NCBI GenBank assembly: GCA_026395965.1
Contig: JAPLXS010000006.1
Span: 118,683 to 182,682 of the forward strand
Direction of reading: 5' to 3'
DNA from: Candidatus Nomurabacteria bacterium
GTDB taxonomy: Bacteria; Patescibacteriota; Minisyncoccia; Phycocordibacterales; UBA9973
DNA: 64,000 nt
Part shown: one piece after another, positions 4,871 through 43,856 of the stretch
Position numbering within the stretch: the stretch's first letter is position 1
Layout: the number at the start of each line of letters is the position of its first letter
The notes under the pieces: model-generated
Told to the model about the DNA's origin: nothing
The model's input: the letters and a program-made list of their open reading frames with translations, nothing else
The model's database searches: none
Program-made: the position numbers and the translations under genes

Positions 4871-6166
4871 ATGAAAAATAGAGCATGGGTTATAGTACTG
4901 GGTGATTTTATTTCATTTATAACAGCATTTATACTCCTTATATTAATCCGTTTTAAGAAAGCAGACTATCTTTCTGCTGTAAATAGCCATACGGTACCAT
5001 TTATAATACTCTATATATCTTGGGTTCTTATTTTCTATATATTTGGGCTCTATGACCTGCTCAACATAAAGCCAACTATTCCATATTTCAATAGATGGAT
5101 ACTAGCTCTTATTTCCTCTTTTACTATGGGTTTGTTATTTTTCTACTTTGTGCCGATCTTTGGTATCAGCCCAAAACTAAATCTCGTAATCCAAGTTGTA
5201 GGGTTTGGATTTTTTTCATTTTTATTGAGAAGAATGGCATACAATCTCTTTGCTAGAGCTATAACTCAACCTGCTATACTTGTCGGTGATTCATCGTATC
5301 TTGCTGAATTAGAGAAAACTATTGCATCCAATCCACAAATAGGTCTCCATGCAATCAACCACTTTAAAACTATCGGTGAAGTAAATCTAAATTTGAAAAA
5401 TATAAAAAATCTTGTCATTATTTTAGATAAAAATATTGAGAATCAAAACCAAAACATTTTAGAATTTTACAAAGAAAATATAGAGATTATTGATACCGCA
5501 AAAGCTTACGAAAAATATTTATATAAAATACCAGTAGAATACATAGATGTATCTTTTATTGTTGAAAATATTAATACAAAAAAAGATGTTTTATACTCAT
5601 TCATAACTTTTTTACTAAATATAGTATTTTCTATAACAATACTTATACTTACTCTTCCTTTCGTGATTATATCTGCCATCTTTATATATCTATATGATTA
5701 CGGTCCAGTATTTTATACACAAAAAAGGGTTGGAATAAATGGTAAAATATTTAAACTCTACAAACTTCGCTCTATGATCACAGACTCTGAAAAAGACGGC
5801 GCAAAGTGGTCCACAGGTACATCGGATACACGTGTGACTCCTGTAGGTAAAATACTTCGTAAGCTACATATAGATGAACTCCCACAAATGATAAATATTC
5901 TAAAAGGTGACCTATCTCTAGTTGGTCCTCGTCCTGAGAGACCAGAATTTGTAAACATACTTGGAAATGATATCCCCTACTACACACTACGCCATATCAT
6001 ACGTCCAGGATTTACTGGCTGGGCTCAGATAAAGTACAGATATGCTGGTTCAACAAAAGATTCCAAAGAAAAGTTTGAATATGATTTGTATTACATTAAA
6101 AATAGAAATATCTTTATGGATTTTGGGATTATAATGAGAACAATACAAATAATATTTACACATTAA
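4871..6166 (+). CDS. polyprenyl-phosphate glycosyl-1-phosphate transferase (WbaP/WsaP-like initiating sugar transferase)
   Basis: N-terminal TM helices and a C-terminal bacterial sugar-transferase domain (KLRSM...DELPQMINILKGDLSLVGPRPERPEF). Confidence 0.85.
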   Translation: MKNRAWVIVLGDFISFITAFILLILIRFKKADYLSAVNSHTVPFIILYISWVLIFYIFGLYDLLNIKPTIPYFNRWILALISSFTMGLLFFYFVPIFGISPKLNLVIQVVGFGFFSFLLRRMAYNLFARAITQPAILVGDSSYLAELEKTIASNPQIGLHAINHFKTIGEVNLNLKNIKNLVIILDKNIENQNQNILEFYKENIEIIDTAKAYEKYLYKIPVEYIDVSFIVENINTKKDVLYSFITFLLNIVFSITILILTLPFVIISAIFIYLYDYGPVFYTQKRVGINGKIFKLYKLRSMITDSEKDGAKWSTGTSDTRVTPVGKILRKLHIDELPQMINILKGDLSLVGPRPERPEFVNILGNDIPYYTLRHIIRPGFTGWAQIKYRYAGSTKDSKEKFEYDLYYIKNRNIFMDFGIIMRTIQIIFTH

Positions 6167-6224
6167 ACAGCATTCAATAACAATCTTCTTAAGATAAAAA
6201 TGGGTTAATTTTATGTGTTTATTT

Positions 6225-6350
6225 ACAGTATTGACACTATGTGCGATAAAAGTATATACTTCATTAGTAACTAGCCATCAGGGACAAATTCCTCTTAGGA
6301 AAAGCGAAAGCTACCTGTATGCGCTGACCGCCCCGTAAGGGGCGGTTTTC
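6225..6350 (+). ncRNA. candidate small RNA / structured 3' UTR
   Basis: Promoter-like TTGACA-17nt-ATATAC at 6231-6259. About 85 nt downstream there is a strong terminator (accgccccgtaaggggcggttttctttt) at 6324-6350. No ORF. Confidence 0.3.
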
Positions 6351-6355
6351 TTTTA

Positions 6356-6901
6356 TTAGTCTGAAATAGTTATTGAAATCTTTTTTGAAACTAGGTGATA
6401 GATATTCTTAATATTTTCATTTGCTGGATTTTCATTATTAAATCTTACAACTCCTGCAACAGCATCAGCTACACGAAGAGCAGGATAACCCTCGTCATTC
6501 CCTGTTTTAAGTTTCTTAACAGATATACCTTTATCTCGTAAAATTTTCTTAAATTTTCTTTCGTAAGTTTTATTCTTTTTTCCATCAATAATTAAATTTG
6601 TAATATTTTTTTCAATAATCAAATGTTCCAAGGCATACTCATATGCTGTATTGCTTTTAAATGGATTCTTTATAAAAGCAATTTTGATAGAAAATTCATA
6701 TTTACATATTTCTTCAATAAATTTTTGCCTAACAGCCCAAGTGCTATGAGACCAGTGGAAGTGTTTAATCTTTAATTTTTTTTCTGTTTCAATAACAGCT
6801 GTTTGAATAATATCTAATTTATTTATTTCAAGATAAACTAAAGCAATTGAAGATTTGCCGTCTTGTTTGTTTATTCCGGATTCATCTATAAAAATATACA
6901 T
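6356..6901 (-). CDS. DUF3800 family protein
   Basis: N-terminal IFIDESG and C-terminal RVADAVAG motifs are characteristic of DUF3800. Confidence 0.5.
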   Translation of the reverse strand: MYIFIDESGINKQDGKSSIALVYLEINKLDIIQTAVIETEKKLKIKHFHWSHSTWAVRQKFIEEICKYEFSIKIAFIKNPFKSNTAYEYALEHLIIEKNITNLIIDGKKNKTYERKFKKILRDKGISVKKLKTGNDEGYPALRVADAVAGVVRFNNENPANENIKNIYHLVSKKISITISD

Positions 6902-7003
6902 GGGTATATTGTATCATTCATAACCTAGTGAGCAAGGCTTCGCCACCACCTCTCTTTGTATTTAAACCTAGAAAAAATGCTTTAAAAATGGTAATATATT
7001 TCC

Positions 7004-7831
7004 ATGAGCAACGGCCATATTACTATCATAAAACCAAAGAAACTCTTCAGTCTTTCTGACTTAAAGGAAGTCTGGGAATATAGAGAATTACTATATTTCT
7101 TTACATGGCGGGACTTAAAAGTTAGATACAAACAGACTGCTATTGGTGCACTGTGGGCAATATTTCAACCATTCATGACAATGGTTGTTTTTTCTGTTTT
7201 TTTTGGGGGATTACTTCAAATACCTTCAGATGGAGTACCCTATCCTATATTTGTCTACACAGGACTACTTTTTTGGCAATTTTTCTCTAGTGCACTTTCT
7301 GATACTAGTAATGTGCTTATCACCAATCAAGCAATAATTACAAAAGTATACTTCCCTCGTCTATTACTTCCTCTTTCTTCTGTAGCAACTAAGTTTATGG
7401 ATTTTGCCATAGCTGCAGTTATTCTAGTAGGTATGATGATTTATTATGGATACACTCCTCATATAACAGGACTACTTATTATTCCCCTACTCCTTCTAAT
7501 TACTTTTATGGCATCTGTAGGATTTGGACTTATCCTAGCATCAATAAACGTTAAATACAGAGACGTAAGATATGCTCTGCCATTCTTTATTCAAATACTT
7601 ATGTTCGTAACTCCTGTTATTTATCCTGCTTCTATTGCTGGTAAATACTCTTGGATACTAGCTCTAAATCCTATGATGGGAGTTATTCAGAGTGCTCGTG
7701 CAGCTCTACTGGGAACAACTGTTTTAAACTGGACACTTATAGGTATATCTCTAGCTGCCACAACAATATTGATGATATTTGGAATTTATACATTCAAGAA
7801 AACTGAACGTTATTTTGCAGATATAATATAA
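7004..7831 (+). CDS. ABC-2 type polysaccharide exporter permease (Wzm/TagG-like)
   Basis: Six predicted TM helices and the ABC-2 family signature. Immediately followed by its ATPase. Confidence 0.8.
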   Translation: MSNGHITIIKPKKLFSLSDLKEVWEYRELLYFFTWRDLKVRYKQTAIGALWAIFQPFMTMVVFSVFFGGLLQIPSDGVPYPIFVYTGLLFWQFFSSALSDTSNVLITNQAIITKVYFPRLLLPLSSVATKFMDFAIAAVILVGMMIYYGYTPHITGLLIIPLLLLITFMASVGFGLILASINVKYRDVRYALPFFIQILMFVTPVIYPASIAGKYSWILALNPMMGVIQSARAALLGTTVLNWTLIGISLAATTILMIFGIYTFKKTERYFADII

Positions 7832-7835
7832 AAAT

Positions 7836-9086
7836 ATGGAACCCATAATTACAGTTAAAAATATTGGAAAGAAATACAATATAAACCATCAAAAAGGTGG
7901 ATATATAACTCTTCGAGATATCATAACCAATGCATTTAAAAATCCTTTTTCATTTTTAAAAACAAAAACTAAAAATATTTTAGGAATAGAAACAAAAGAA
8001 ATATTTTGGGCTTTAAAAGACGTAAATTTTGAAGTTATGAAAGGTGAAGTTATCGGAATAATAGGACGCAACGGTGCAGGTAAATCCACCTTACTTAAAA
8101 TACTTTCACAAATTACACCTCCTACTACTGGAGAGATACGAATCAATGGTACAGTTGGAAGTCTACTTGAAGTAGGTACTGGTTTTCATCCAGAACTTAC
8201 AGGTAGAGAGAATATTTTCCTAAATGGAGCAATTCTTGGAATGAAGAAAAAAGATATCGCTAAAAAATTTGATGAAATTGTTAAATTCGCAGATATAGAA
8301 AAGTTCCTAGATACTCCTGTTAAATACTACTCTAGCGGAATGTACGTTCGTCTCGCCTTCTCTGTAGCAGCCCATATGGATACAGATATTTTAATAATTG
8401 ATGAAGTCCTCGCTGTTGGAGATGCAGAATTTCAAAAAAAGTGTTTGGGTAAGATGGAAGATATTACACAAAAAGAAGGTAGAACTATCCTTTTTGTTAG
8501 TCATGATATTAAAGCCATAAAACAACTTTGCAATAAAACAATACAGATTGGGAATGGTCAGATTATTAATTTTGGAGAAACTGAAAATGTTGTAGAAAAA
8601 TACCTATCTATATCAAATGATATTACCTTAGAAAAATGGGAAAATAATAAAAATGAATTTAATAATGATTATTTTAAACCAGAAAAATTTTATATATCAA
8701 AAGAAAAAAATGATGAATTATCTATTAACTTAGAGGCAATAATAGATAAAATTGATAATTCTTTAACTGTCGGATATGCTTTATATTCAGAAGACAATAC
8801 GCTACTTTATTGGTCATATCAAATAGATGGAGATAATACCGATATACCAAAATTACAAATAGGTAGAAACATTATCAAATCAATAATACCTGTAGAAATA
8901 TTAAATAATGGTAGATATACAATAGAACTTATTGGCGGAATACACAACAAAGAATGGTTATTTGAACCAAATAAAGGAAACCCTACATTAACAATAGAGA
9001 TAGATAGAAAATTCAATACTTCGCATCTGTGGACAAAAAAAAGACCTGGATTATTAGCACCAACAATTAACTGGAAAAATAAATAA
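7836..9086 (+). CDS. polysaccharide ABC exporter ATP-binding protein (Wzt/TagH-like) with extra C-terminal domain
   Basis: Walker A GRNGAGKST, signature YSSGMYVRLAF and Walker B ILIIDE. A ~160-aa C-terminal extension resembles Wzt carbohydrate-binding domains. Confidence 0.85.
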   Translation: MEPIITVKNIGKKYNINHQKGGYITLRDIITNAFKNPFSFLKTKTKNILGIETKEIFWALKDVNFEVMKGEVIGIIGRNGAGKSTLLKILSQITPPTTGEIRINGTVGSLLEVGTGFHPELTGRENIFLNGAILGMKKKDIAKKFDEIVKFADIEKFLDTPVKYYSSGMYVRLAFSVAAHMDTDILIIDEVLAVGDAEFQKKCLGKMEDITQKEGRTILFVSHDIKAIKQLCNKTIQIGNGQIINFGETENVVEKYLSISNDITLEKWENNKNEFNNDYFKPEKFYISKEKNDELSINLEAIIDKIDNSLTVGYALYSEDNTLLYWSYQIDGDNTDIPKLQIGRNIIKSIIPVEILNNGRYTIELIGGIHNKEWLFEPNKGNPTLTIEIDRKFNTSHLWTKKRPGLLAPTINWKNK

Positions 9087-9087
9087 T

Positions 9088-10551
9088 ATGAATGATTTCG
9101 CAAAATATAAAAAAAATATTACATCACAATGGGGAGAAGATGGCATTATTACAGAAATTTTTAAACGTATTGGCGTACAAGAAAAATTTTGTATTGAATT
9201 TGGAGCATGGGATGGCAAACATTTAAGTAATGTATGGAATTTATGGCATGAAATGAAATGGTCCGCGCTATTAATAGAAGGAGATAAAAATAAATGTAGA
9301 GACCTAGAGCAGTTTGTATCAGATTTTCCTAAGGTTAAACCATATTGTACATATGTTGAAGCAGAAGGAATAAATTCTCTAGATAAAATATTAGAAAAAA
9401 CATTTCCTAATAAAATAATTGATATTTTATCTATTGATATTGATGGAAATGATTATTATATATTTGAATCACTAAAAGCTAAACCAAGAGTTATAATTAT
9501 TGAATACAACCCTACTATTCCTCTTCATATAGATCTTGTACAAAAAACAGATGAATATTTTGGAGCATCAGCTCTTTCTATGTACAAACTTGCTCATAGT
9601 AAAGGATATAAACTAGTAACAATGACAGAAACAAACTTTTTTTTAATAAATGATAATGAATTTAAAAAATTAGGCATAAATGAACCTGCGCTGGAAGATA
9701 TTTTTTCTACAGACAATTTAACATATATAATGACTGCATATGATGGTACTCCTGCTTTAACTAAAATACCAACATACCACAACATCATTAAAAGAACAGA
9801 GAGAGAACTACATTTTAATGAAAATGAATTTATAACTATCAATTTAAAAAAATACAAACAGGAAAACCTGCTTATAAAACTATTTTTAAAACTACTTAAT
9901 AAAGTTTCTTTAAAGATTGATTTTTATACAAACAAAAACAATATTGATTTGCAATCAAAAAGAGTTATTCCTTGGTTTAAAATAAATGGAGATAAAACAT
10001 TAAGATTGGATTATCCCTTAAATTCTTCTTCTGTCGTAGTAGATGTGGGAGGATACGAAGGTCAATGGGCAAGTGACATATTTGCAAAATATAACTCTGA
10101 TATAATAATATTTGAACCTGTTAAACAATTTGCCCAACAGATAGAAGAAAGATTTTCTAAAAACAATAAAATAACTTGTTATAATGTAGGCCTTTCAAAT
10201 ATAGATAAAACTGAAAAAATATCACTCTTAGATGATAGTTCGTCATTATTTAAAAATAATACACAATTAGAAAATATTACATTAGTAAATACTAATAATT
10301 TTTTTGAGCAAAAAAATATTAATAGTATTGATCTTATAAAAATAAATATCGAAGGAGGTGAATATGATTTATTAGAAAATCTGATAGAAAATAAACTTAT
10401 TTCTAAAATAAAAAATATCCAAGTTCAATTTCACGACTTTGTCCCAAATGCAAAAGAAAGGATGGCAAATATACAAGAAAAACTGAAAGAAACTCATCAT
10501 ACAACATATCAATATGAATTTGTTTGGGAAAACTGGGAAAGAAATAATTAA
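9088..10551 (+). CDS. tandem FkbM-family methyltransferase (two MTase-like domains)
   Basis: Both halves carry the FkbM pattern: a DxGxxxG-like segment (CIEFGAWDG / VVDVGGYEG) and IDIDGNDYYIFESL / INIEGGEYDLLENL. Confidence 0.65.
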   Translation: MNDFAKYKKNITSQWGEDGIITEIFKRIGVQEKFCIEFGAWDGKHLSNVWNLWHEMKWSALLIEGDKNKCRDLEQFVSDFPKVKPYCTYVEAEGINSLDKILEKTFPNKIIDILSIDIDGNDYYIFESLKAKPRVIIIEYNPTIPLHIDLVQKTDEYFGASALSMYKLAHSKGYKLVTMTETNFFLINDNEFKKLGINEPALEDIFSTDNLTYIMTAYDGTPALTKIPTYHNIIKRTERELHFNENEFITINLKKYKQENLLIKLFLKLLNKVSLKIDFYTNKNNIDLQSKRVIPWFKINGDKTLRLDYPLNSSSVVVDVGGYEGQWASDIFAKYNSDIIIFEPVKQFAQQIEERFSKNNKITCYNVGLSNIDKTEKISLLDDSSSLFKNNTQLENITLVNTNNFFEQKNINSIDLIKINIEGGEYDLLENLIENKLISKIKNIQVQFHDFVPNAKERMANIQEKLKETHHTTYQYEFVWENWERNN

Positions 10552-10555
10552 TTTT

Positions 10556-11371
10556 ATGCAAACAAGAATTTCAGTTATAATACCTACATACAATGGAGCC
10601 AAAACACTTGAAGCAGTTATAAAAAGTTGTCTTAAACAAACATTACAACCAATTGAGATACTTGTATGTGACGATGGATCTACAGATGAAAGCAAAATAA
10701 TAGTAGAACGAATAAATGACAATCGTGTTATTTGGGTCCCCTCTCAACATAGTGGAACTCCAGCCGTACCTAGAAATAATGGTATGAAAATAAGCAAAGG
10801 AGAATGGATTGCTTTTTGTGATAGTGACGATGAATGGCTACCCACAAAACTAGAAAAACAAATAAATTTAGCAATAAAATTAAAACTCAAAGCTGCGTGT
10901 ACAAGTGCTCTTATAAAAATAAACGGTAACATTAAAAATGAATTGGTTTCTAATTGGAATAAGGAGAATATTACATTTAGTAATATTCTAAAAAGTAATG
11001 ATATTGTATGTAGTTCAGTTATTATTCATAAATCAATAATCAATAACATTGGTGAATTTTCTACAGAAATTAAAAATAGAAGTTTCGCTGATTATATATA
11101 CTGGCTAAGAGTACTAACAGAAACTAATTTTGCCTTTGTGGTTGAACCACTCGTTATATATGACGACCACCCTGAAACTAGCATACGAAATGATAGGATA
11201 TCAGATAAAGAACTACAAGAGACATCATTTAATGATTTAATATCCTGGATGAAGAAAGATAAAAAAAACAAACTTAAAATTTTATATTTTAAGATACAAA
11301 TCTATCTATACAAAGTAAAACAAAAAAATATTAACATGATTAAAAATCATGTTAAATTAATAATAAAATGA
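10556..11371 (+). CDS. family 2 glycosyltransferase
   Basis: ISVIIPTYNGAKTL ... CDDGSTDES (GT-A DXD region). I chose the start at MQTRISV to avoid overlap with the upstream gene. Confidence 0.75.
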   Translation: MQTRISVIIPTYNGAKTLEAVIKSCLKQTLQPIEILVCDDGSTDESKIIVERINDNRVIWVPSQHSGTPAVPRNNGMKISKGEWIAFCDSDDEWLPTKLEKQINLAIKLKLKAACTSALIKINGNIKNELVSNWNKENITFSNILKSNDIVCSSVIIHKSIINNIGEFSTEIKNRSFADYIYWLRVLTETNFAFVVEPLVIYDDHPETSIRNDRISDKELQETSFNDLISWMKKDKKNKLKILYFKIQIYLYKVKQKNINMIKNHVKLIIK

Positions 11372-12951
11372 AAATAGGAATCTTATACATTTGCACGGGT
11401 AAATATACTATCTTTTGGAAAGATTTCTATTTGAGTATGGAAAAGAATTTTATAGAGGATTCCGAAAAACATTATTTTGTTTTTACTGATAGTAATGATA
11501 TTGATTTTGAAAATGAAAATCCTCGTATTCATAGAATACACCAAAATGATTTAGGCTGGCCATATAATACACTAAAGCGTTTCCATATATTTCTAGAACA
11601 TGAAAAAGAGTTAGTAAATATGGATTATTTATTCTTTTTTAATGCCAATTTATTTGTTTTAGAAAAAATTAATTCTAAAGAATTTTTACCTATAGATAAA
11701 GAAAATTTAGTTGCAACATTACACCCTGGATTTTATGATAAAGAAAAGATTAAATTTACATATGACCGAAATACCAAATCAACCGCATATATACCAAAAG
11801 GTTATGGGGATTCCTATTTTGCTGGTGGTTTGAATGGTGGTAAAACTATCAAATTCATAGAGGCAATGAAAATAATACGTGACAATGTAGATATTGATAA
11901 TAAAAAAAATGTTATTGCCCTATGGCACGATGAATCACATTGGAATAAATATTTAATAGAAAGATCAGATGTCAAAATACTAACACCTTCATACTTATAT
12001 CCTGAAGGTTGGACCCTACCCTTTAAACCTATAATACTTATTCGTGACAAAAATAAATATGGTGGACACAATTTATTGCGAAATAGTAAAAATACTTTTT
12101 ATAATATATTAATAAATGCACTTAGAAATATATTTTCTAAAATTGTAAAAAAAATTCCTAATTTATGGATACTTTTTATATATCACAAAACAAAAAGCAT
12201 AATCGAAACACAAGGAATAAAAATTGAAAAAACTCCTTTGTTAATAATAACTATAGCTTTCAATAATATTGAAATACTAAAAACACAATATATTTATATA
12301 AAAAATAATTTACAAGATGATTTCATATATATGATTGCTGATAATTCATCAGTACAAAATATATCTAATGAAATAAAAAAATATTGTAAAGACAACAAAA
12401 TTCCATATGTTAAACTCCCACCTAATCCATACAATAATCCGAGTAAATCACACGGGATGGCGTTAAATTGGACATATAAAAATATAGTAAAAACATACGA
12501 GCCTGTTTTATTTGGTTTCATAGACCATGATATATTCCCCTATCAAAAAACTTCTATAATATCCAGCATAAATAGTGGAATTTTCGGCCTCATTCAAGTA
12601 CGAAATGAAAAATGGTATTTATGGCCTGGATTTTGTTTTTATAAATATATAGGATTGAAAACAATTAAAATAAACTTTATGCCTAAAAAAGGACTAGATA
12701 CGGGTGGGGCAAATTATTACACACTTTATAAAAATATAAACAAAGATTTATTGATAAAAATACCACAAATATATATAGATATAAATACAAATACAGAAGT
12801 AAAAGGTATCAATGACACAAACACAGCAAATACAGTAGAGTGTATTGGTGACTGGCTTCACCTAATGAGAGTTTCAAACTGGAATAATAAAAATAATAAT
12901 AAAATTCATTCAGTTGAAGAAATTATATCCAAAGTTAAAAAAATACTTTAA
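11368..12951 (+). CDS. two-domain glycosyltransferase (GT6-like N-domain plus GT-A-like C-domain)
   Basis: The N-domain has KIGILYICTGKY...HYFVFTD and ALWHDESHWNKYL, which resemble family-6 glycosyltransferases. The C-domain has FIDHD. Confidence 0.55.
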   Translation: MKIGILYICTGKYTIFWKDFYLSMEKNFIEDSEKHYFVFTDSNDIDFENENPRIHRIHQNDLGWPYNTLKRFHIFLEHEKELVNMDYLFFFNANLFVLEKINSKEFLPIDKENLVATLHPGFYDKEKIKFTYDRNTKSTAYIPKGYGDSYFAGGLNGGKTIKFIEAMKIIRDNVDIDNKKNVIALWHDESHWNKYLIERSDVKILTPSYLYPEGWTLPFKPIILIRDKNKYGGHNLLRNSKNTFYNILINALRNIFSKIVKKIPNLWILFIYHKTKSIIETQGIKIEKTPLLIITIAFNNIEILKTQYIYIKNNLQDDFIYMIADNSSVQNISNEIKKYCKDNKIPYVKLPPNPYNNPSKSHGMALNWTYKNIVKTYEPVLFGFIDHDIFPYQKTSIISSINSGIFGLIQVRNEKWYLWPGFCFYKYIGLKTIKINFMPKKGLDTGGANYYTLYKNINKDLLIKIPQIYIDINTNTEVKGINDTNTANTVECIGDWLHLMRVSNWNNKNNNKIHSVEEIISKVKKIL

Positions 12952-12955
12952 ATTA

Positions 12956-13804
12956 CTACCAATTCTTTTTGTAAAATTTAATTAATTTATTTAGAGAAAA
13001 TTTAATAGGTGATTTCAAAATCAAACCATAGACCACCAGTCTGGCATAAGAACGAATAATTGCTCCAAAATAATTGGGGTATTTATTTTTATAATTTTTA
13101 ATTAATTTTATATCTTTTTTAAATTGATCTATTTTATTGGTTGAGCTAATACTACCCTCTCTTGAGGTAAATTTAACTGCATATATAGGTAAATTGGCAA
13201 ACTTGCCTATTGTTCCTAGCTTAAGCCACAAATCATAATCCTCGACATGTCGTGTATCTTTTGATTCATCATATCCATTAAAACCCAGAACTGCATCTTT
13301 TTTAAACATTACGCTAGAGTGCACAAAACAATTTTTGCCTAGAATTTTATTTCTTATTTCTCTGTCACTTCCTGGTAATAAATATCTAAATAATTCATTA
13401 TTATTGTCATTTACCACAACAACCCCTGTACCTACTAAAACAATATCCAGATTGTTATTTAAAAATTCAACTTGTTTATGAAGCTTATCTTTATCTACCC
13501 ATTCATCGTCATCGTCAATGCGGGCAATATATTCCCCCTTTGCTTCTTTTAAGCCCCTATTTAGAGTTTTTTGAATTCCTAGATTTATTTTATTTTTGAA
13601 ATATTTTATTCTTTTGTCATCTTTTACTAAATTATCAATCACAAACTCTGTATTATCAATAGAACCATCATCTACCACTAAAAGCTCCCAGTTATCATAT
13701 GACTGGCTAATAATACTCTTTACCGCATCTACTATGCGACCTGAGCCATTATATGTAGGTAATATGATTGATACTAATTTATCCATAATTATATCCTTAT
13801 CCAT
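12956..13804 (-). CDS. family 2 glycosyltransferase
   Basis: VSIILPTYNGS ... LVVDDGSIDNT ... RIDDDDEW. Confidence 0.8.
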   Translation of the reverse strand: MDKDIIMDKLVSIILPTYNGSGRIVDAVKSIISQSYDNWELLVVDDGSIDNTEFVIDNLVKDDKRIKYFKNKINLGIQKTLNRGLKEAKGEYIARIDDDDEWVDKDKLHKQVEFLNNNLDIVLVGTGVVVVNDNNNELFRYLLPGSDREIRNKILGKNCFVHSSVMFKKDAVLGFNGYDESKDTRHVEDYDLWLKLGTIGKFANLPIYAVKFTSREGSISSTNKIDQFKKDIKLIKNYKNKYPNYFGAIIRSYARLVVYGLILKSPIKFSLNKLIKFYKKNW

Positions 13805-14667
13805 TCTTTTGGTATTAAATCATCACTGTTAATACTTGCATCTCCAAACCATTTTTTGGGAACAATAACTATTTTGTCTTTATGTACAGAAAGCCATGCA
13901 GCCCACCATGAAAACGAGCTATTGGGTATTATAAAACTATGACACGCAGACATCAAAGAAAAATGCCCTTCTGCTTTTATACCTGAATATTCTTCTCCTA
14001 CAAACATAACAGGAAAATCAAATTTCATATTATCTTCACACCATTTTACATCGTCAGAAAAAACATATATTTTGTCTATTTTTGTTTTTTCACTTAATAT
14101 TTTAATACCTTTATCATAATATTCTTTTCCTACTATTTCGTGATTTGAATTTCCTACATAGTCTCCTCTTCTCACATGAATACATAGTGAATTTTCTTTT
14201 TTTATTACTTCCATTAAATTTTTAATATTTAATGATAATTCATCTTTTAAAGTAAAATCTTTACGTATAATATCTTCTATATCAGCAAAATATTTATAGC
14301 TTTGCCAGTATCCATCTAGATAAGCATTTGAACCAATATTTAAAATAGTTAGGTCAAAGTTAAAACTTTTTTCTATACCTCTTAATCTAAAAAATTTCCT
14401 TCTAAAATAATCAAAATATAAACCAAATTTACCATTGAAATTTCTATACAAAAAAGGAATTTTTGATTGTGATACACGATCAACATTTATTATATTAAAA
14501 ATATCTAGATCATACTCTCTAAATGTAAAATTTGGACGTGGAGTTCTGTCCAACAAAAAACTTAAATCTAGTCCTAAGGAAGTGCCATATTTAACAGAAA
14601 GAGCCCTACCTAGAGCATATTGAAACATTTGATTCCCCATTCCACCTTTTAGTTTTGTAATAATCAT
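13789..14667 (-). CDS. alpha-1,2-fucosyltransferase (GT11)
   Basis: [19 protein letters not shown]-terminus and the HVRRGDY motif typical of GT11. Confidence 0.75.
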
Positions 14668-15599
14668 TTATTTATATTTTCTTTATACCATTCATAAGTT
14701 CTCTTTATACCATCATTCAAATTTATTTTAGGACTCCATCCGAGTGCTTTTAATTTGGAAATATCGAGCAATTTTCTAGGTGTTCCATCTGGTTTCGATG
14801 AATCCCATACAATACTACCTTTGTATCCAACAATATCTTTTATAGTATTTGCCAGTTCTAAAATAGACAAATCCTCTCCTGTACCAATATTTATAATCTC
14901 TGGACTCGAATAATTATTCATCAAAAAAATACAAGCAGAAGCTAAGTCGTCTACATGTAAAAATTCTCGCTTTGGACTACCGCTACCCCAAAGATTCACC
15001 TCATTTATATTATTCTTCACAGCATCGTCAAATTTCCTTATCATTGCTGGAAGTACATGAGAACTCTCTAAATCAAAATTGTCGTTTTCCCCGTACAGAT
15101 TTGTAGGCATAACGCTTATCGCATTCATACCGTATTCCTTTGCATATGACTGACACATAACTATACCTGCTATCTTTGCTATAGCATACGCCTTGTTTGT
15201 AGGTTCCAGTTCTCCTGTTAATAAATACTCCTCTTTTATGGGCTGTAGAGCTATCCTAGGGTATATACACGAGCTGCCTAGAAATAGTAGCTTCTTTGTA
15301 TTGTTCTTATAAGCAGAGTCTATTATATTGGTCTCCATCATTAGATTCTCAGCTATAAATGATGCTGGGTAACTATTATTGGCAACTATGCCACCAACTT
15401 TTGCAGCGGCAAGAAATACGTATTCTGGCTTCTCTTCTTGAAAGAATTTAGCCACACTTAGTTGCGAGGTTAAATCTAGTTCTGTATGAGTTTTGGATAT
15501 TATATTTGTATATCCATCTTTTTTTAGTTCACGAATAAGAGCAGATCCTACGAGCCCACTGTGTCCTGCTATATATATCTTTGAATTCTTTTCCATCAC
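14664..15599 (-). CDS. fcl: GDP-L-fucose synthase (GDP-4-keto-6-deoxymannose 3,5-epimerase/4-reductase)
   Basis: [14 protein letters not shown] Rossmann motif and the Fcl/WcaG family pattern. Adjacent to gmd. Confidence 0.85.
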
Positions 15600-15853
15600 G
15601 TATGAAATAGGAATCGTTTTAAACGTGAATTTAAATATCTTCTTCCCATTCCTGTTTTTAAGTATAATTCTCTCGACAGTGCGTCTTCTTTATTTAAGCA
15701 TGCTTCGTAATATATTATATCATATGGTCCTCGTCCTTTTGTATAAGTTGATTTACCTTTGTTATGTTGTTTAAAACGTTTCCGTAAGTCACTCGTATAT
15801 CCAATATACCATTTACCATCTTTTTTACTTTTTAGTACGTAAGTATAGAACAT
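15596..15853 (-). CDS. GIY-YIG nuclease domain protein (free-standing, 85 aa)
   Basis: [30 protein letters not shown] ... is a classical GIY-YIG motif. Confidence 0.8.
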
Positions 15854-15895
15854 ATTTTATTTCATACGTGATAAATCATAAATAGAAATATATTT

Positions 15896-16957
15896 TTATA
15901 CTAAATAATCCTTACTTGAAATACCTCTATCTTCAAACTCTTCTTTCATCATTAAAACAACTAAATCTTTAAATTTAATATTTGTATCCCAGTTTAGTTT
16001 CTCTTTTGCTTTTGTGCTATCACCCAAAAGTATATCTACTTCAGATGGTCTGTAATATGTGGGGTCGATACTCACCAACACTTTTCCAGATTTTTCGTCT
16101 ATACCCTCTTCATTTAAACCTTCGCCTCTCCATACTATTTTATAGCCCACAAGCGAAGCAGCCTCTTCTACAAACTCTCTCACTGTATGAGTCTCTCCTG
16201 TCGATATAACATAATCATCTGGGGTGTCTTGCTGCAACATGAGCCACATAGCCTCTACGTAGTCTTTTGCATAACCCCAGTCTCTCTTTGCTTCTAGATT
16301 TCCTAGAAATATCTTTTCTTTTTTACCAAGTTTTATATCGGCCAGACCTTCTACTATTTTTTTGGTTACAAAGGTTCTACCTCGTCTTGGGGACTCATGA
16401 TTAAAAAGTATTCCATTACAAATAAACATACCATATGAATCACGATAATTATTACATATCATATGTGAAAAAACTTTGGCACAACCATATGGACTTTGTG
16501 GATTAAATGGAGTTTTTTCACTCTGAGGAACTTCTGATACTTTTCCAAACATTTCACTAGAACCTGCTTGATAGAATTTTATTTTAGGATTGGCTTCTTT
16601 TATTACATCAAGCATGCGAAGAGTTCCAAGTGCGTCCACATTTGCAGTATATTCTGGAATATCAAAACTTACTCTCACATGACTCTGTGCTCCAAGATTG
16701 TATACCTCCTCTGGATTACTTAGTTTTATTACTCTTAAAATACTATTTGAGTCAGAAAGATCACCATAATGAAGTATTAGATTTTTATTGTCGGTATGGG
16801 GGTCTTGATATATTTTTTCCAATCTTTCGGTATTAAAACTTGATGACCGTCTTATCATTCCGTGAACTTCATACCCTTTTTCTAAAAGTAATTCTGCTAG
16901 ATATGAACCATCCTGACCTGTGATACCTATTATTAGTGCTCGTTTTTTTGTTTTCAT
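15896..16957 (-). CDS. gmd: GDP-mannose 4,6-dehydratase
   Basis: [27 protein letters not shown] and full-length Gmd family conservation. Confidence 0.9.
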
Positions 16958-17001
16958 AATTTATTATGGTTTATTTATTAATTACTATTATCGAAAAATA
17001 T

Positions 17002-17622
17002 TTATCGCCAGCTTTCTGGCAATACTATATCTCCAACAGAATCAGAAATAATACCAGCGAACTGACTTTCTTTCAAAACTCCTTCGCGAATCTTTTTAAC
17101 AAAAGAAGCGATCTTTTTTAATTCTATTGTGTTTTTTTCATATGGACTAATAACAACTACAGGTAAATTTAATTCTTCTATTACTATTTTTATTGGTTCT
17201 ACTAAATCAGAGTCATTGGAAATAACAATAGCCATATCATAAAGACCTTTATATCCATCATTTATTAAATGGGATGCTATATTAACATCTGTTCCTTTCT
17301 CTTCTGTTTTTATAACCTTTGTATATCCTTTTTCTTCAGCATTCTTCATCAAAATAGAATGAGTTAAAAAAGTCCCTTTTATAATTTCAACATTGGGTAA
17401 AGTTTTTAAAGCACGAAGATACACTTGTTGTCTATTTGGCTTGTCATAATCAGAATCATTTTCTCTTATTTTTACCAGAGCTGTAAAATATTTTATTTTT
17501 GAAATTTCATGATTTGGGAAAAGTAAACAAGATAATTTATTGATATTAAGCCATTTATATTTACTATTTTTAAAACAACCATAATATAGATTAAATCCGT
17601 CTATGTATACGTGGAGTCTCAT
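17002..17622 (-). CDS. NYN/PIN-like domain protein
   Basis: MRLHVYIDGFNLYYG is an NYN-type N-terminal motif. The acidic residues are conserved. Confidence 0.5.
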   Translation of the reverse strand: MRLHVYIDGFNLYYGCFKNSKYKWLNINKLSCLLFPNHEISKIKYFTALVKIRENDSDYDKPNRQQVYLRALKTLPNVEIIKGTFLTHSILMKNAEEKGYTKVIKTEEKGTDVNIASHLINDGYKGLYDMAIVISNDSDLVEPIKIVIEELNLPVVVISPYEKNTIELKKIASFVKKIREGVLKESQFAGIISDSVGDIVLPESWR

Positions 17623-17855
17623 TTCAATATAATACTAGTAAAATGCAGAAACCGCAACTTACGTTGCGGTTTCGCGTCCTGCCACCGAAGCAACAAGAGA
17701 TGTACTTATATATTACCATTATACTTTTACTAAAGTCAAGTAATTACTCTAATTTATATATGATAATATTCTCCAGTGATAAATGGACCTTTCCTTAGCA
17801 TTGTTTAATTATATTAAACCTATTACCCTTACGTAAGGACTGTCCTTGCAAGTTC

Positions 17856-20070
<2,215 letters not shown>

Positions 20071-20158
20071 CCATAAAGGATGGTTTTTTGTATAAATTTA
20101 AGGTTATATATCCTGGTTTAAACTTTTAGATTAAACCAATCCAACCAACATCTACAGA

Positions 20159-21922
20159 CTAGAAACTAGCTGTAAGTGTAAGTGCTGTAAGACCATTAGT
20201 TATAGATGCGCCAGTTGGAGTTCCTGAAGCTGTTCCATAATTGATTGCAGTAGCAGCAATTGTTGTTGTTGAATTTGATGCACCACGTAGAGCAGCTGCA
20301 AATGTAAATGTGCGAGCTGAACTTGCTGGTATTACATATGAAACGCCTGCTGTATCACCTACCATTGTTGATGGTGCTGATGCAGTTACGTTTGATAATG
20401 CTGTAGCATAACCTGTACCAGAAACTGTCATAAATGTAAGTGGTGTAGCACTTACATACAAGTCGTTGTTACTGTTGTTTGTTAGAGTAAATACATATGT
20501 TGCATTGTATCCAACTGTACTATTACCTTGTACAATTGCTGCACCTAGGGTTGCTGAAGAAGCACTTAGGGCAACTGCGTTTGTAGTTAGAGTAAGAGTA
20601 CTTGCTGTACGAGTACCAGCTGTTAATGTTGCTGTACCATAGTTAGCATCTGTTACAGTAATATTAGCTGCATCAAATGATGTAGCAACTGAAGCAGATC
20701 CTGGAAGTGCCTTTATATCAGCTTTGATAGTAAAGTCTGTCCAAACATCTAATGCTAAAGGAACAGTTAAGTTACTAAATGTAACAACACCTGTACTTGT
20801 ATTTAATGATCCACCTGCAACATCTGTTCCATTTACTATTAATCTAAAATTACTGAAGTCTGTTTTAGTTCCAGCAATTAAAGTAACTGGTAATGTGTTT
20901 AGTGTTGCTGTGTTGTTTGATGCCTTAATACTGAACACACCTAGAGTAGCACCAGCTGTTGTTTGTGTAAGAGAAACAATTTGCTGGCCTGCTAATGGTG
21001 ATGAAGGACTAAGTCTTGAGTATATAACTGCTACAGAACCTGTTGCAGTTAATGTTACTGTATTTTCTCCTGCTGGTGATACTGGATTAATAGTATCAAA
21101 GTAACCAACTTCACTTGTTGTTCTTATTCCATTCAAAGTAGTAGTAACATTTTGAGTTGTTATAATCTTGTCTGTTGCAGAAAGAACTGATGCACTAACA
21201 GCTAAGTCAGGATTTGTTCCTGGAGTAACTGTGTAGTTAAGACCATCAAATCTTACTAGATAGTCAGAACCAACTGTTATTTCTGTTGAATCAGCTGAAC
21301 TTGAAAGAGTCTTTGTTGCAAGAACTTTTCCACTGTTGTCATGAAGTGTAACTGTACTGAAGAACAACCATGGTCTTACAGAGAAGTGTGCATCAACACG
21401 AGAAACCTTAACTGGACCTGCTGTTGCTTGTAATCTTACTGCTGCTACATCTTTAGTTTCACCTTTCTTAATTGAAATAAGAGAAGCAACATATGATGAA
21501 GTTGAAGCTGTAAGTGATCCATCTGTATTACCTGTAGCTACTGTTGTAGCTGTAGTTCCACATGATGCACCTGTTGTTGAACTAAACAAAGCACCTGCTG
21601 TACATCCTGCTACTGTTGTAGTAGTTGTTGTAGTTGTAGTTGTAGTTGTAGTTGAACCTGCGTTTGCTTTAGCCATTGAAGCTTTACCAAACATTCCATC
21701 AGCTGTTAAACCGTTTGCTGCTTGCCAAACTTTAACTTTAGCTGCTGTCATTTTACCGAAAGAACCGTCTGCTGGTGAACCTACAAGAGTCTGAAGAGTC
21801 TTTACGTATTCACCTTTACTACCAACCTTTAGGGTCATAGTACCGAAATCATAAGAAGCGAATGCTGTTGTTGTAACAAGAGCAAATGCAACCAATGTTC
21901 CTACTAAATATTTTTTGAACAT
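20159..21922 (-). CDS. secreted Thr/Ser-rich surface protein with two N-terminal peptidoglycan-binding (PG_binding_1) domains
   Basis: Signal peptide. Two LKVGSKGEYVKTLQ...DGxFG modules, a poly-Thr linker (T13), then ~450 aa rich in T/S/A/G/V. Confidence 0.6.
   Translation of the reverse strand: MFKKYLVGTLVAFALVTTTAFASYDFGTMTLKVGSKGEYVKTLQTLVGSPADGSFGKMTAAKVKVWQAANGLTADGMFGKASMAKANAGSTTTTTTTTTTTTTVAGCTAGALFSSTTGASCGTTATTVATGNTDGSLTASTSSYVASLISIKKGETKDVAAVRLQATAGPVKVSRVDAHFSVRPWLFFSTVTLHDNSGKVLATKTLSSSADSTEITVGSDYLVRFDGLNYTVTPGTNPDLAVSASVLSATDKIITTQNVTTTLNGIRTTSEVGYFDTINPVSPAGENTVTLTATGSVAVIYSRLSPSSPLAGQQIVSLTQTTAGATLGVFSIKASNNTATLNTLPVTLIAGTKTDFSNFRLIVNGTDVAGGSLNTSTGVVTFSNLTVPLALDVWTDFTIKADIKALPGSASVATSFDAANITVTDANYGTATLTAGTRTASTLTLTTNAVALSASSATLGAAIVQGNSTVGYNATYVFTLTNNSNNDLYVSATPLTFMTVSGTGYATALSNVTASAPSTMVGDTAGVSYVIPASSARTFTFAAALRGASNSTTTIAATAINYGTASGTPTGASITNGLTALTLTASF
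21612..21656. repeat. (GTTGTA)n hexanucleotide microsatellite encoding the poly-Thr linker
   Basis: gttgtagtagttgttgtagttgtagttgtagttgtagttg inside 20159..21922. Confidence 0.7.
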
Positions 21923-33029: not shown

Positions 33030-34304
33030 TTATTCTTTATTGAGAGCTTCTATGGGGTTTAATTTTGCTGCATTTTGTGCAGGAAATACTCCAAATATAA
33101 TACCTATAATACCCGATACAGAAACGGCAATAATTACACCCCAAATAGGTACTATGAACTTCCATGCTAATCCTAGACTCTGTGCTATTTTAGAAATAAC
33201 AAATGCGCCGAATGCTCCACCCATAACCCCTATAACACCACCTATGATAGTTAGTAGTATTGATTCGACTAAAAATTCATACATAATATCGCGATTGCGA
33301 GCACCAAGAGCTTTTTTTAATCCTATCTCTCCGATACGTTCTGTCACTATGACATACATAATATTCATAACCCCTACCCCACCTACAAGCAGAGATATAG
33401 AGGCAATAGCAATAAGCAAAAATGTAACTGCGCTCAATATAGTATCGAAAGTTCCTAAACTCTCTGACTGAGTAGTAACTTTAAAATCATCACGAATAGG
33501 GTCTGTAATATAATGATTTTTTCTTACAATATCTGCTACGTCTAGAGCTGTGGCATCTGCCTTGGTATTGTCTATCAATCCTATAACTGAATAAATAAGA
33601 TAATCTATGCCTTGAATTTTCTTTTGAAGAGTTGTGACTGGAATAAAAGCTTGGTCGTCGTCATTCATAGGACCAAATCCTCCTTTCTTTGCATATACCC
33701 CGATAACTTCAAAATTATAATTACCTATTCTTATCAACTTACCTACGGGATCAACTCCATCAAATAAACTTGTAGCTAGCGTGTTACCAAGTACTACAAC
33801 TTGGGCAAGAGCTTTGTCTTCTTGAGAAGAATAACCTCTACCTTCTTCGATGATTCCTTTATCAATATCAAATCTATCTGCACTTGCTCCAAAAATAAAA
33901 ACATTTTTTGAAACATTTTTATATGTTACTATTTGCTGACCGATAGAAGCTCCGTATGCATTTTTTACATTTGGAATATTTTTAATATCTTCTACATCTC
34001 TCATTTTCAAACTTGTGATTGGAATAGCATTTGAAGCAGAAGAATTTGCTTGTTTTGAACCTGATCCAGAGTTTGAACGTGCCTTTGTAGAATCAGGAAG
34101 TGAAGTTTCAAGAGTAATAATATTTGAACCAAAAGCATCTATTTGGGAATTTATATAACTCTTAAAACCCTCTCCTGCTGATAGTACAAGGATAACAGTA
34201 CCTATACCAATCATAATACCGAGAGTCGTCAAAAAAGTCCTAGAAGGATTTGATTTAACACCACGTATAGCTTGTTTGATATTGTTATTCATAACGTAAT
34301 GCAA
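33030..34304 (-). CDS. ABC transporter permease, MacB/FtsX-like
   Basis: N-terminal TM helix, a large periplasmic MacB_PCD-like domain, and a C-terminal FtsX 3-TM bundle. Confidence 0.8.
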   Translation of the reverse strand: MHYVMNNNIKQAIRGVKSNPSRTFLTTLGIMIGIGTVILVLSAGEGFKSYINSQIDAFGSNIITLETSLPDSTKARSNSGSGSKQANSSASNAIPITSLKMRDVEDIKNIPNVKNAYGASIGQQIVTYKNVSKNVFIFGASADRFDIDKGIIEEGRGYSSQEDKALAQVVVLGNTLATSLFDGVDPVGKLIRIGNYNFEVIGVYAKKGGFGPMNDDDQAFIPVTTLQKKIQGIDYLIYSVIGLIDNTKADATALDVADIVRKNHYITDPIRDDFKVTTQSESLGTFDTILSAVTFLLIAIASISLLVGGVGVMNIMYVIVTERIGEIGLKKALGARNRDIMYEFLVESILLTIIGGVIGVMGGAFGAFVISKIAQSLGLAWKFIVPIWGVIIAVSVSGIIGIIFGVFPAQNAAKLNPIEALNKE

Positions 34305-35568
34305 CTATTGGGTCGAGCTTAGCTGCTTTTAATGCGGGATAAAGACCAAATATAACTCCGGTAAGAATAGACACAAAAACAGCGAGTATTATAGCCATAG
34401 GTGAGATAATAAAAGCCCAATCATAACCTGCAAACCTCGCTCCGAGTGCAATCAAATAAGAAATTAATATTCCTGAAATAATACCTAAAATACCACCTGA
34501 AAGAGTCAGGACTATTGATTCAAATAGGAATTGATTTCTTATATTTCTTTTGGTTGCGCCTATTGCTTTTCGAAGACCTATCTCGCGTGTACGCTCTGAA
34601 ACTGTCACAAGCATAATATTCATAATACCAATACCTCCTACTATGAGCGATATGCCTGCCATTAAACTCAAAAATATACTAAGCGTACCTGTAATACTAG
34701 TCAGAATTTTTATTGCATCTACTAGATCGCGAACAGAAAAATCGTCATCTTCTGGGTTTTTAATATTGTGTTGTTCACGCAAAACACGAGCGACATCATC
34801 TATTGTTGTTTTTACATTTTGAGAATCATTTACTTTCAGTCTTAGAAATTGAATATAATCTATACCAAGTAACTGACGTTGTCCTATAGAAAAAGGTATA
34901 AAAACTTGGTCATCTTGGTTTTGAAAAGCCACAGTTCCCATTTTCTTTTGAACTCCTATAACTCTAAATGGAATACTACCTGTGTCTCCTGTCACAGCAG
35001 GATTATTGTTTGGTATTTTAATTTTAACAATCTTTCCAAGTTCATCACCATAAGGAAATAAATTGGTTGCTACGTCATACCCGAGAACCATAACATTGTT
35101 ACCTGCCCTGCCTTCTTCTTCAGAGAAAAATTGACCTTTTTCCATTTCTACATTCTGAACATTTGGATAGCTCCCATCTGTAGCTGTAAAAGTAGTATCT
35201 AGACTTTCTCTTCCAGATATCAAAGTTGCACTACCACGAACGGTAGCTGCAACTGCAGTAGCATAAGGAACATTGCCCTTATCTTTTATTGCTTCTACAT
35301 CGCGTAATTTTAATGTTTTTATTTGAATACCAAAAACAGAAGCTGGAGGACCATTTTCATTGCTCTTTCCAGGGAGTACCCCTACTAGATTGGTTCCTAG
35401 TTTGGTTACTTGTCCAAGCACTAGAGATTGTGCACCAGCACCAAGAGACATGATAATGATAACTCCAGCGACACCGATAATAATACCTAAAATAGTCAGA
35501 AAAGTTCTTCCTTTTCTTGAAAGTAAGTTTTTAACAGTTGTTTTAATTTCAGATAAAAAGTTTTGCAT
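34285..35568 (-). CDS. ABC transporter permease, MacB/FtsX-like (paralogue)
   Basis: Same architecture as 33030..34304. The two genes overlap by 20 nt. Confidence 0.8.
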   Translation of the reverse strand: MQNFLSEIKTTVKNLLSRKGRTFLTILGIIIGVAGVIIIMSLGAGAQSLVLGQVTKLGTNLVGVLPGKSNENGPPASVFGIQIKTLKLRDVEAIKDKGNVPYATAVAATVRGSATLISGRESLDTTFTATDGSYPNVQNVEMEKGQFFSEEEGRAGNNVMVLGYDVATNLFPYGDELGKIVKIKIPNNNPAVTGDTGSIPFRVIGVQKKMGTVAFQNQDDQVFIPFSIGQRQLLGIDYIQFLRLKVNDSQNVKTTIDDVARVLREQHNIKNPEDDDFSVRDLVDAIKILTSITGTLSIFLSLMAGISLIVGGIGIMNIMLVTVSERTREIGLRKAIGATKRNIRNQFLFESIVLTLSGGILGIISGILISYLIALGARFAGYDWAFIISPMAIILAVFVSILTGVIFGLYPALKAAKLDPIVALRYE

Positions 35569-35572
35569 TCAT

Positions 35573-36286: not shown

Positions 36287-36379
36287 CGAGATACTAAAAT
36301 TTTAATAATAATTTATTTTCTATATTTAACTATTTATTTGATGTATAAATTTAATTAAGTAAAATTTACAAAAGAAAAA

Positions 36380-43833: not shown

Positions 43834-43856
43834 TAAATATATTATTTACTAAATAT

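Follow-up and report, generated by a model that had tools for sequence, protein, structure and literature searches.

A strain-variable surface-glycan island beside a conserved gene for a likely WaaL-fold ligase in Candidatus Nomurabacteria

We analyzed a 64,000-nt window (~30% GC) of a Candidatus Nomurabacteria chromosome (contig JAPLXS010000006.1), in which surface-glycan genes occupy positions 4871-21922. The locus is a surface-glycan island that varies among strains and adjoins a conserved gene for a likely ligase, whose product is a membrane enzyme with a Wzy_C domain and a C-terminal tetratricopeptide repeat (TPR) domain, here called Wzy_C-TPR. Gene families, folds, conserved residues, synteny, and co-occurrence form the established part of this work. 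Building on them, we propose a pathway in which the island glycan would be ligated onto surface proteins by the WaaL-fold enzyme, and we put the probability of that whole pathway at about 0.5. The degree of confidence differs along the way: the biosynthesis and export reading of the cluster is well supported, and a ligase or oligosaccharyltransferase role of Wzy_C-TPR is likely. A protein acceptor is our best guess, at roughly even odds, and the Thr-rich surface protein encoded next to the enzyme is a plausible but unproven acceptor. A preliminary description of this DNA had outlined an ABC-transporter-dependent glycan pathway with a glycosylated surface protein. Every open reading frame (ORF) that it listed is present where it had been placed, and profile searches reproduced its family calls apart from three corrections, which concern a glycosyltransferase of family GT6, the number of peptidoglycan-binding domains, and insertions within the cluster.

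We compared the window with 77 related loci (L-numbered) from metagenome-assembled genomes of lakes and groundwater. The order FtsK, hypothetical winged-helix-turn-helix (wHTH) protein, peptidoglycan-binding/Ig-like protein, and Wzy_C-TPR is kept in these loci, and the genes downstream are hypervariable. Two loci (L006 and L008) contain nearly the entire window cluster. Across the set, the downstream cluster is of the Wzm/Wzt type in ~8 loci and of the Wzx type in ~10, such as L078 with its flippase, GT1, GT2, GT1, and phosphoglycosyltransferase (PGT) genes. Wzy_C-TPR stays at a fixed position with 40-60% identity, even as loci differ in export route and in glycosyltransferases. This conservation across switches between ABC and Wzx export and between glycosyltransferase sets argues for the behavior of a ligase or oligosaccharyltransferase and not of a repeat-unit polymerase. 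Wzy_C-TPR matches an NCBI protein of Candidatus Nomurabacteria at 100% identity, and its more than 190 homologs are all in Patescibacteria. Some loci also hold tandem Wzy_C paralogs with 23-49% identity to the window enzyme (L002, L003, L004, L012, L022, L024, L036, L037, L042, and L044), several of them without a detectable TPR; these may act as polymerases or as ligases with a different specificity.

The preliminary description had recognized a Wzy_C-type membrane protein with TPR, and both domains were recovered, Wzy_C above its Pfam cutoff (Table 1) and the TPR by PDB profile matches (positions ~490-675). Translation probably starts at ATG 20034, which gives the 693 aa found in the NCBI annotation and in orthologs, and not at GTG 20070. 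The AlphaFold (AF2) model (pLDDT 90) has 12 transmembrane (TM) helices, a large loop at aa 292-361, a Lys-rich loop, a 13th TM helix (TM13), and TPR repeats at aa 496-682. In this model, the TPR domain should be extracellular, on the same side as the catalytic loop, because the termini of WaaL are cytoplasmic, TM13 is added after 12 TM helices, and the loop preceding TM13 is basic. A C-terminal TPR has been described for the predicted O-oligosaccharyltransferase (O-OTase) WsfB and for PglL, and a gene for a TPR protein neighbors that of WsaB (PMC2943079).

A fold search of the PDB with the Wzy_C-TPR model gave a sole match at E<1e-3, the ligase WaaL (7TPG; E 6e-5; TM-score 0.58 on the target). 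A PDB profile search with the whole alignment returned TPR proteins only among the best 60 matches listed. With hhalign, R215, R288, and H338 of Escherichia coli WaaL fall on R242, R309, and H360 (693-aa numbering), at a low probability of 7.5% and in a register that fits all three residues. Across 26 orthologs, R309 and H360 do not vary, and conservation of R242 is 90% or higher. E. coli WaaL needs this Arg/Arg/His set, which PglL conserves as well (PMC3643930). The ligase or oligosaccharyltransferase role proposed earlier is therefore supported by the WaaL fold match, the Arg/Arg/His residues, the predicted outside TPR, and retention beside both ABC- and Wzx-type clusters. The window encodes a second multi-TM protein with TPR (760 aa; 56402-58684, minus strand) of the same architecture (hhalign 97%, 574 columns). 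Its residues at the sites of the conserved Arg309 and His360 are Ser and Gln, and Pfam Wzy_C does not match it; perhaps it is a paralog of Wzy_C-TPR that is inactive or acts in another way.

What, then, might receive the glycan? The gene for a Thr-rich protein lies 88 bp upstream of the Wzy_C gene and is co-oriented with it. The intergenic gap is free of terminator-like sites, and a strong one stands past the end of the Wzy_C gene. The same position holds an adjacent, co-oriented gene for a 600-720-aa S/T-rich protein with a signal peptide in ~27 of 33 close orthologous loci; in the others, an inserted ORF or a Wzy_C paralog separates the two genes. An oligosaccharyltransferase gene stands beside its acceptor gene for 21 of 31 pglL homologs, and PglL-type enzymes modify flexible low-complexity segments (PMC3643930).

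A composition scan confirmed the secreted, Thr/Ser-rich character ascribed to this protein (S+T = 0.30, with a 13-residue poly-Thr run). Two peptidoglycan-binding domains had been counted, and there is one, seen as a single Pfam match (aa 49-83) and a single three-helix bundle in the model (aa 30-88). The PG_binding_1 domain (aa 30-88) is followed by a disordered linker rich in S, T, P, A, and G (aa 89-132) and by four Ig-like beta-sandwich domains; the AF2 model has a pLDDT of 84, falling below 50 in the linker. The Ig-like domains match the Ig-like domains of PrgB, integrin leg domains, and Cna in the PDB. The earlier term "S-layer-like" is not supported by this fold, which is a wall-anchored Ig-like chain with no SLH or S-layer signature. 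More than 260 homologs occur in Patescibacteria, and across 36 homologs the linker is hypervariable, ranging from 18 to 90 aa with an S+T fraction of 0.14-0.65 and 0-3 Cys-pair motifs. This Cys-pair motif, present once in the window protein (aa 104-122; alignment columns ~200-290), takes forms such as GC[TP]xGxxFSxTTGxxC and CPxG[YF]TCT.

The biosynthesis and export half of the earlier proposal, which was ABC dependent, was upheld by profile matches to a WbaP-type initiator, Wzm/Wzt, and the GDP-fucose synthesis genes gmd and fcl (Table 1). The wzm and wzt genes are adjacent, inside the glycosyltransferase cluster, and Wzm has orthologs with 77-88% identity in L006, L008, L029, L030, L048, L062, and L068. 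In Wzt, a nucleotide-binding domain (aa 1-257) precedes a C-terminal ~160 aa (DNA 8601-9083); the TagH/Wzt NCBIfam matches of the protein (1e-54 to 1e-61) are under the equivalog cutoffs. The Wzt C-terminal extension that had been described is thus present, and its family overlaps Pfam Wzt_C. A word-index protein search with this C-domain found four close matches, and an exhaustive phmmer search of a 1.8-billion-protein library found 329 representatives, with E down to 1e-31, always C-terminal in Wzt-length (~420-aa) proteins. Because 18 of 30 full-length members of the family match Pfam Wzt_C (PF14524; best 1.3e-8), transitive homology identifies the extension as a putative divergent Wzt_C carbohydrate-binding domain, with sugar binding predicted.

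The gene directly 3' of wzt encodes the FkbM-family protein that had been called a tandem FkbM methyltransferase. Its C-terminal half is a strong match, and the assignment of the N-terminal half is weak and partial (Table 1). The window-type Wzt C-domain and the FkbM C-half occur together in 7 of 8 related loci, and none of the five loci whose Wzt has another C-extension or none contains an FkbM homolog (Fisher p ~0.005 by our own calculation, with phylogeny ignored and the loci not independent). This pattern supports a predicted cap-and-read coupling, in which FkbM methylation would terminate the chain. Recognition of a cap by the carbohydrate-binding domain of Wzt has been described (PMC9445017), likewise for S-layer glycans (PMC2943079).

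Four glycosyltransferases including a GT11 had been listed. The GT11 and two GT2 enzymes were confirmed; the fourth is a GT6 that had gone unrecognized. Its GT6 domain (aa 1-239) has 56% identity to Bacteroides ovatus BoGT6a (4AYJ; 2e-82) and an N-X-N motif in place of D-X-D (FFFNANL). It keeps five of six 2'-fucosyllactose contacts (H119, K125, T131, W186, and E189), with Lys at the position of BoGT6a E132 (alignment against Table 2 of PMC3516806). BoGT6a is a blood-group A antigen synthase that acts on Fuc-alpha-1,2-Gal or 2'-fucosyllactose (PMC3516806). Because a BoGT6a-like GT6, a GT11, and GDP-fucose synthesis share the cluster, a histo-blood-group A/B-like epitope is the most economical prediction; the glycan probably carries one, and the donor could be Gal, GalNAc, or Glc. 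All sugar identities given here are predicted in this way. GT11 orthologs occur in 23 of the 77 related loci and GT6 in two, L006 and L008, where the fusion is conserved; GT6 would thus be a rare add-on to the cluster. The second GT2 (b in Table 1) comes after GT11 in many related loci.

The remainder of the GT6 fusion (aa 265-527; DNA 12160-12948) gave no Pfam match at E<=10, no NCBIfam match, and no meaningful PDB match. A GT-A-like reading of this C-domain, suggested by a DHD motif seen by eye, was unsupported, with no hhalign relation to the GT2 enzymes of the cluster. One possibility is that the domain adds a further glycosyltransferase module, of the sort found in polymerizing enzymes of ABC-dependent pathways.

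Taken together, the pathway that we propose would begin with the WbaP-type transferase placing a hexose-1-phosphate onto polyprenyl phosphate at the inner membrane face. Two GT2 enzymes, the GT11 alpha-1,2-fucosyltransferase, and the GT6-fusion enzyme would extend the chain with GDP-fucose supplied by gmd and fcl; GT11 followed by the BoGT6a-like GT6 would yield Fuc-alpha-1,2-Gal with alpha-1,3-Gal/GalNAc, a histo-blood-group A/B-like structure. The FkbM methyltransferase would modify the growing chain end, the Wzt C-domain would read the finished modified chain, and Wzm/Wzt would export it. On the outer face, the WaaL-fold enzyme would move the chain from the lipid carrier to the acceptor, the direction of transfer that we infer, by way of its Arg/Arg/His site, and the TPR would select the acceptor. 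The glycan would end up on Ser/Thr in flexible low-complexity segments of surface proteins; foremost among the candidates is the upstream-encoded, wall-anchored protein with Ig domains.

Several observations weigh against this pathway. On the export side, the C-domain of the window Wzt, taken alone, is below threshold for Pfam Wzt_C (E 0.014; 15.8 vs 30.4 bits), and a PDB sequence search with its profile found nothing at E<=10. FkbM enzymes may methylate internal sugars instead of capping chains. The poly-Thr run of the candidate acceptor is peculiar to this strain, in which the longest S/T run is 14 residues, versus 1-9 in 35 homologs. Homologs of the Thr-rich protein at 38-44% identity keep the EF-P/RecA/FtsK/hypothetical/PG_binding block without a Wzy_C neighbor, and such distant homologs are followed by ribosomal or other genes. 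Because these homologs share the FtsK-side block without Wzy_C, the Thr-rich/Wzy_C adjacency is clade-specific and could merely mark the insertion site of the island; judged by synteny, the Thr-rich protein belongs to a conserved core block, which the ligase and island adjoin in this clade only. We considered adjacency as proof of the acceptor, and the distant homologs weaken it. As for the enzyme, neither PglL_A nor PglL_B was found in Wzy_C-TPR, for which a Pfam scan at E<=0.01 gave PF04932 alone. Without PglL_A it is therefore not a PglL-family member in the strict sense. PilO likewise lacks the two motifs (PMC3643930), so their absence lowers the case for calling the enzyme a PglL and not the case that it works like an O-OTase. 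A WaaL-fold enzyme with TPR could equally ligate the glycan onto lipid or another glycan.

Synthesis and export would be the same if the enzyme served such a non-protein acceptor, whether a glycolipid anchor (a lipoglycan standing in for lipopolysaccharide [LPS] in a monoderm), peptidoglycan, or a wall polymer, with the Thr-rich protein a mere neighbor. We regard this as possible, though on the unlikely side. The nearest solved structure is a lipid-A-core ligase, the PglL_A motif was not found, the Thr-rich family lives without an adjacent Wzy_C in more distant lineages, and the Wzy_C family is tied robustly to glycan clusters and not, outside this clade, to the Thr-rich protein. The envelope of the Candidate Phyla Radiation (CPR) has also gone undescribed, its formation and structure being unclear and glycoproteins or a glycosylated S-layer merely speculated (PMC5220378). 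However, the canonical acceptor of WaaL is missing, because the CPR genomes studied are without genes for lipid A/LPS; one Parcubacteria genome studied lacks lpxC and kdsA for this synthesis (PMC5220378). No LPS genes were seen within the window. An outward TPR is, moreover, a protein-binding module, reported for the predicted or known O-OTases WsfB and PglL (PMC2943079). An LCP-type ligase was not found among the window ORFs scanned. In known monoderms, it is LCP enzymes and not Wzy_C proteins that attach undecaprenyl-pyrophosphate-linked polymers to peptidoglycan, which argues against a wall acceptor for this enzyme.

The enzyme might instead be a protein O-OTase with its main acceptors elsewhere. 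Type IV pilins abound in CPR and usually serve as partners for PglL, TfpO, and PilO. In line with this, 21 of 31 pglL homologs pair with pilins (PMC3643930), and type IV pili are encoded in Parcubacteria (PMC5220378). A large S/T-rich fiber protein is another conceivable target, as the window encodes a 1,878-aa secreted protein with an S/T-rich tail (43857-49493), and the Thr-rich adjacency is clade-specific. Yet neither the window nor the related loci examined have a pilin gene beside Wzy_C-TPR, and the co-oriented Thr-rich neighbor, with no terminator between, is kept at the frequency given above; we consider acceptors elsewhere improbable. Still less probable, in our estimation, is that Wzy_C-TPR serves as a polymerase of the Wzy type, or as a factor for chain length or assembly. 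Pfam Wzy_C takes in some polymerases too, and no other Wzy was seen in the clusters of Wzx-type relatives such as L078, where a polymerase role is possible and would count against ligation. TPR-less paralogs stand in tandem at several loci, so the family has diversified in function. But the window cluster is ABC-transporter dependent and needs no Wzy; polymerases are repeat-unit specific and change with the cluster, whereas Wzy_C-TPR is steady in identity and position. The Arg/Arg/His residues of WaaL and PglL are kept, and WaaL is the only strong PDB match.

In its concrete form, the locus offers a testable model with a fixed ligase gene, a fixed candidate acceptor, and a swap-in glycan island of ABC or Wzx type. 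If this model holds, it would explain surface variation in these episymbionts and would supply glyco-engineering with a compact O-oligosaccharyltransferase whose TPR acceptor module is built in. It is tempting to go further and suppose that Nomurabacteria, ultra-small bacteria that have no LPS, use the conserved WaaL-fold/TPR enzyme to put a hypervariable, serotype-like glycan on the peptidoglycan-anchored Ig protein and perhaps on others. This would be a protein-borne CPR "O-antigen," here methyl-capped, fucosylated, and A/B-like, encoded in a fixed-site island shaped by phage/host-recognition pressure and selfish insertions. We offer this fuller picture tentatively, as a possibility on which we would not yet rely. 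The GT6/GT11 pair would carry blood-group-like glycan synthesis into a free-living freshwater CPR lineage and bears on the debate over horizontal transfer of GT6 (PMC3516806).

The third correction to the preliminary description concerns three selfish-looking insertions that break up the cluster, namely, DUF3800 with its RNA, GIY-YIG, and NYN; none of them is a pathway gene. The DUF3800-II RNA motif lies head-to-head with the DUF3800 gene and ends in a strong terminator-like hairpin (6326-6347). Neither the DUF3800 ORF nor the NYN ORF has a homolog in any of the 77 related loci, from which the DUF3800/RNA pair is absent too. The GIY-YIG ORF has a homolog in one related locus only (L051). It lies within imperfect 30-nt inverted repeats (15595-15624 and 15843-15872; 77% complementary), and this bracketing suggests a small selfish element. 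The NYN cassette contains a strong terminator-like hairpin (17673..17648) and sits between 94-nt direct repeats of the gmd 5' end (16865-16958 and 17859-17952; 97% identical), giving a repeat-flanked cassette size of 994 bp (site 16865-17952). Immediately past the stop codon of Wzy_C, the upstream gmd copy codes for a fragment of gmd 33 aa long. In orthologous loci, gmd directly follows the Wzy_C gene, and NYN has the look of a mobile cassette that entered at what was ancestrally the Wzy_C-gmd junction.

Table 1. Features of the surface-glycan locus, with window coordinates and the profile matches behind each assignment
Feature	Coordinates	Strand	Evidence
Initiating polyprenyl-phosphate hexose-1-phosphate transferase (large WbaP/WcaJ-type PGT)	4871..6166	+	Pfam Bac_transf 3e-61; NCBIfam TIGR03025 307 bits vs 295 cutoff
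DUF3800-II RNA motif	6267..6329	+	Rfam RF02961 49 bits vs 43.2 gathering score
DUF3800 protein, between PGT and wzm	6356..6901	-	Pfam DUF3800 5e-7
Wzm, ABC-2 permease of glycan exporter	7004..7831	+	Pfam ABC2_membrane 1.6e-16
Wzt, exporter ATPase, 416 aa	7836..9086	+	ABC_tran 5e-22; TagH/Wzt-type NCBIfam matches
Two-part FkbM-family methyltransferase, candidate chain-end capping enzyme	9088..10551	+	C-half TIGR01444 2.9e-21; N-half Methyltransf_21 5e-5
GT2 glycosyltransferase (a)	10514..11371	+	Glycos_transf_2 2.4e-30
GT6 alpha-1,3-Gal/GalNAc transferase, bacterial metal-independent type (aa 1-239), fused to ~260-aa C-domain	11368..12951	+	NF041524 303 bits vs 250 cutoff
GT2 glycosyltransferase (b)	12956..13804	-	Glycos_transf_2 9e-35
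GT11 alpha-1,2-fucosyltransferase	13789..14667	-	Pfam Glyco_transf_11 1.1e-30, 107 bits vs 23.9 cutoff
GDP-L-fucose synthase (fcl)	14664..15599	-	NF047922 2e-148, 494 bits, slightly below 500-bit cutoff
Small GIY-YIG nuclease ORF, 85 aa, between fcl and gmd	15596..15853	-	Pfam GIY-YIG 4e-17
GDP-mannose 4,6-dehydratase (gmd)	15896..16957	-	TIGR01472 556 bits vs 415 cutoff
Inserted cassette with NYN-domain ORF 17002-17622	16959..17858	-	Pfam NYN 3e-7
WaaL-fold (Wzy_C) membrane enzyme with 13th TM helix and C-terminal TPR; candidate glycan ligase/O-oligosaccharyltransferase	17953..20070	-	Wzy_C 56.3 bits vs 31.7 cutoff
Secreted, peptidoglycan-anchored surface protein, candidate acceptor	20159..21922	-	Signal peptide; Pfam PG_binding_1 7e-8

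Elsewhere in the window, the 1,878-aa secreted protein (minus strand) carries a Peptidase_S74 (endosialidase-chaperone) domain near its C terminus, in addition to its S/T-rich tail, and adjoins a 583-aa protein with a CarboxypepD_reg domain (pair 42082-49493, minus strand). The two may form a large surface fiber, and the 1,878-aa protein may be another glycosylation target. Two MacB-type permeases, an ABC ATPase, and an HlyD-type membrane-fusion protein are encoded together at 33030-37924 (minus strand). Such a set is typical of diderm tripartite efflux, yet the organism is thought to be without an outer membrane.

How does this locus compare with known systems? Besides Bacteroides ovatus, bacterial mimics of histo-blood-group antigens include E. 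coli O86 and Helicobacter mustelae. The window shares with such mimics the pairing of a GT11 fucosyltransferase with an NXN-type, metal-independent GT6, here with 56% identity to BoGT6a (PMC3516806). In contrast to these mimics, the relatives of the window organism come from lakes and groundwater and not from vertebrates, the GT6 is fused to a second domain, and GT6 occurs in 2 of 77 related loci, with GT11 in 23. The PglL, TfpO, and PilO enzymes of Proteobacteria have the same Wzy_C core with the conserved Arg/Arg/His, a relaxed coupling to differing glycan pathways, genes often beside and co-oriented with the acceptor gene, and target sites in flexible low-complexity segments (PMC3643930). 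The window enzyme differs in having no PglL_A or PglL_B, though PilO is without them too; its candidate acceptor is not a pilin, and its donor is probably a long capped polymer and not a short oligosaccharide.

The ABC-dependent O-polysaccharide systems of E. coli O8/O9a and Klebsiella and the WzmWzt transporter of Aquifex correspond in cytoplasmic assembly on a polyprenol carrier, a chain-end enzyme gene beside the transporter, a C-terminal carbohydrate-binding domain on Wzt, and last transfer by a WaaL-fold enzyme (PMC9445017, PMC3482155). Unlike them, the window belongs to a CPR cell without a lipid A-core acceptor (PMC5220378). Its initiator is a Bac_transf PGT and not WecA, its cap enzyme is FkbM-type and not a WbdD kinase-methyltransferase with a coiled-coil ruler, and its ligase has an extra TM helix and a TPR domain.

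Compared by published descriptions, the closest known systems appear to be the slg clusters of Geobacillus stearothermophilus NRS 2004/3a and Paenibacillus alvei CCM 2051T. These monoderms have a WbaP-type, Gal-1-P-transferase-like initiator (WsaP), Wzm/Wzt export, a methyltransferase for the terminal cap (WsaE) that is read by Wzt, and a multidomain glycosyltransferase. Their Wzy_C enzyme has its TPR either built in (WsfB) or adjacent (WsaA/WsaB), with transfer to Ser/Thr/Tyr of a surface protein (PMC2943079). The window system, in contrast, is found in Patescibacteria. Its candidate acceptor is a PG_binding_1-anchored Ig-like chain and not an SLH-type S-layer protein, its sugars are fucose/GT6-based where those of the slg clusters are rhamnan or ManNAc-based, and its methyltransferase is free-standing and FkbM-type. 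Our literature search found no work tying Patescibacteria/CPR to an O-antigen ligase, S-layer glycosylation, or protein O-glycosylation. Altogether, this is a known kind of system, S-layer-glycan- or O-antigen-like, in a phylum that is new for it within the literature searched.

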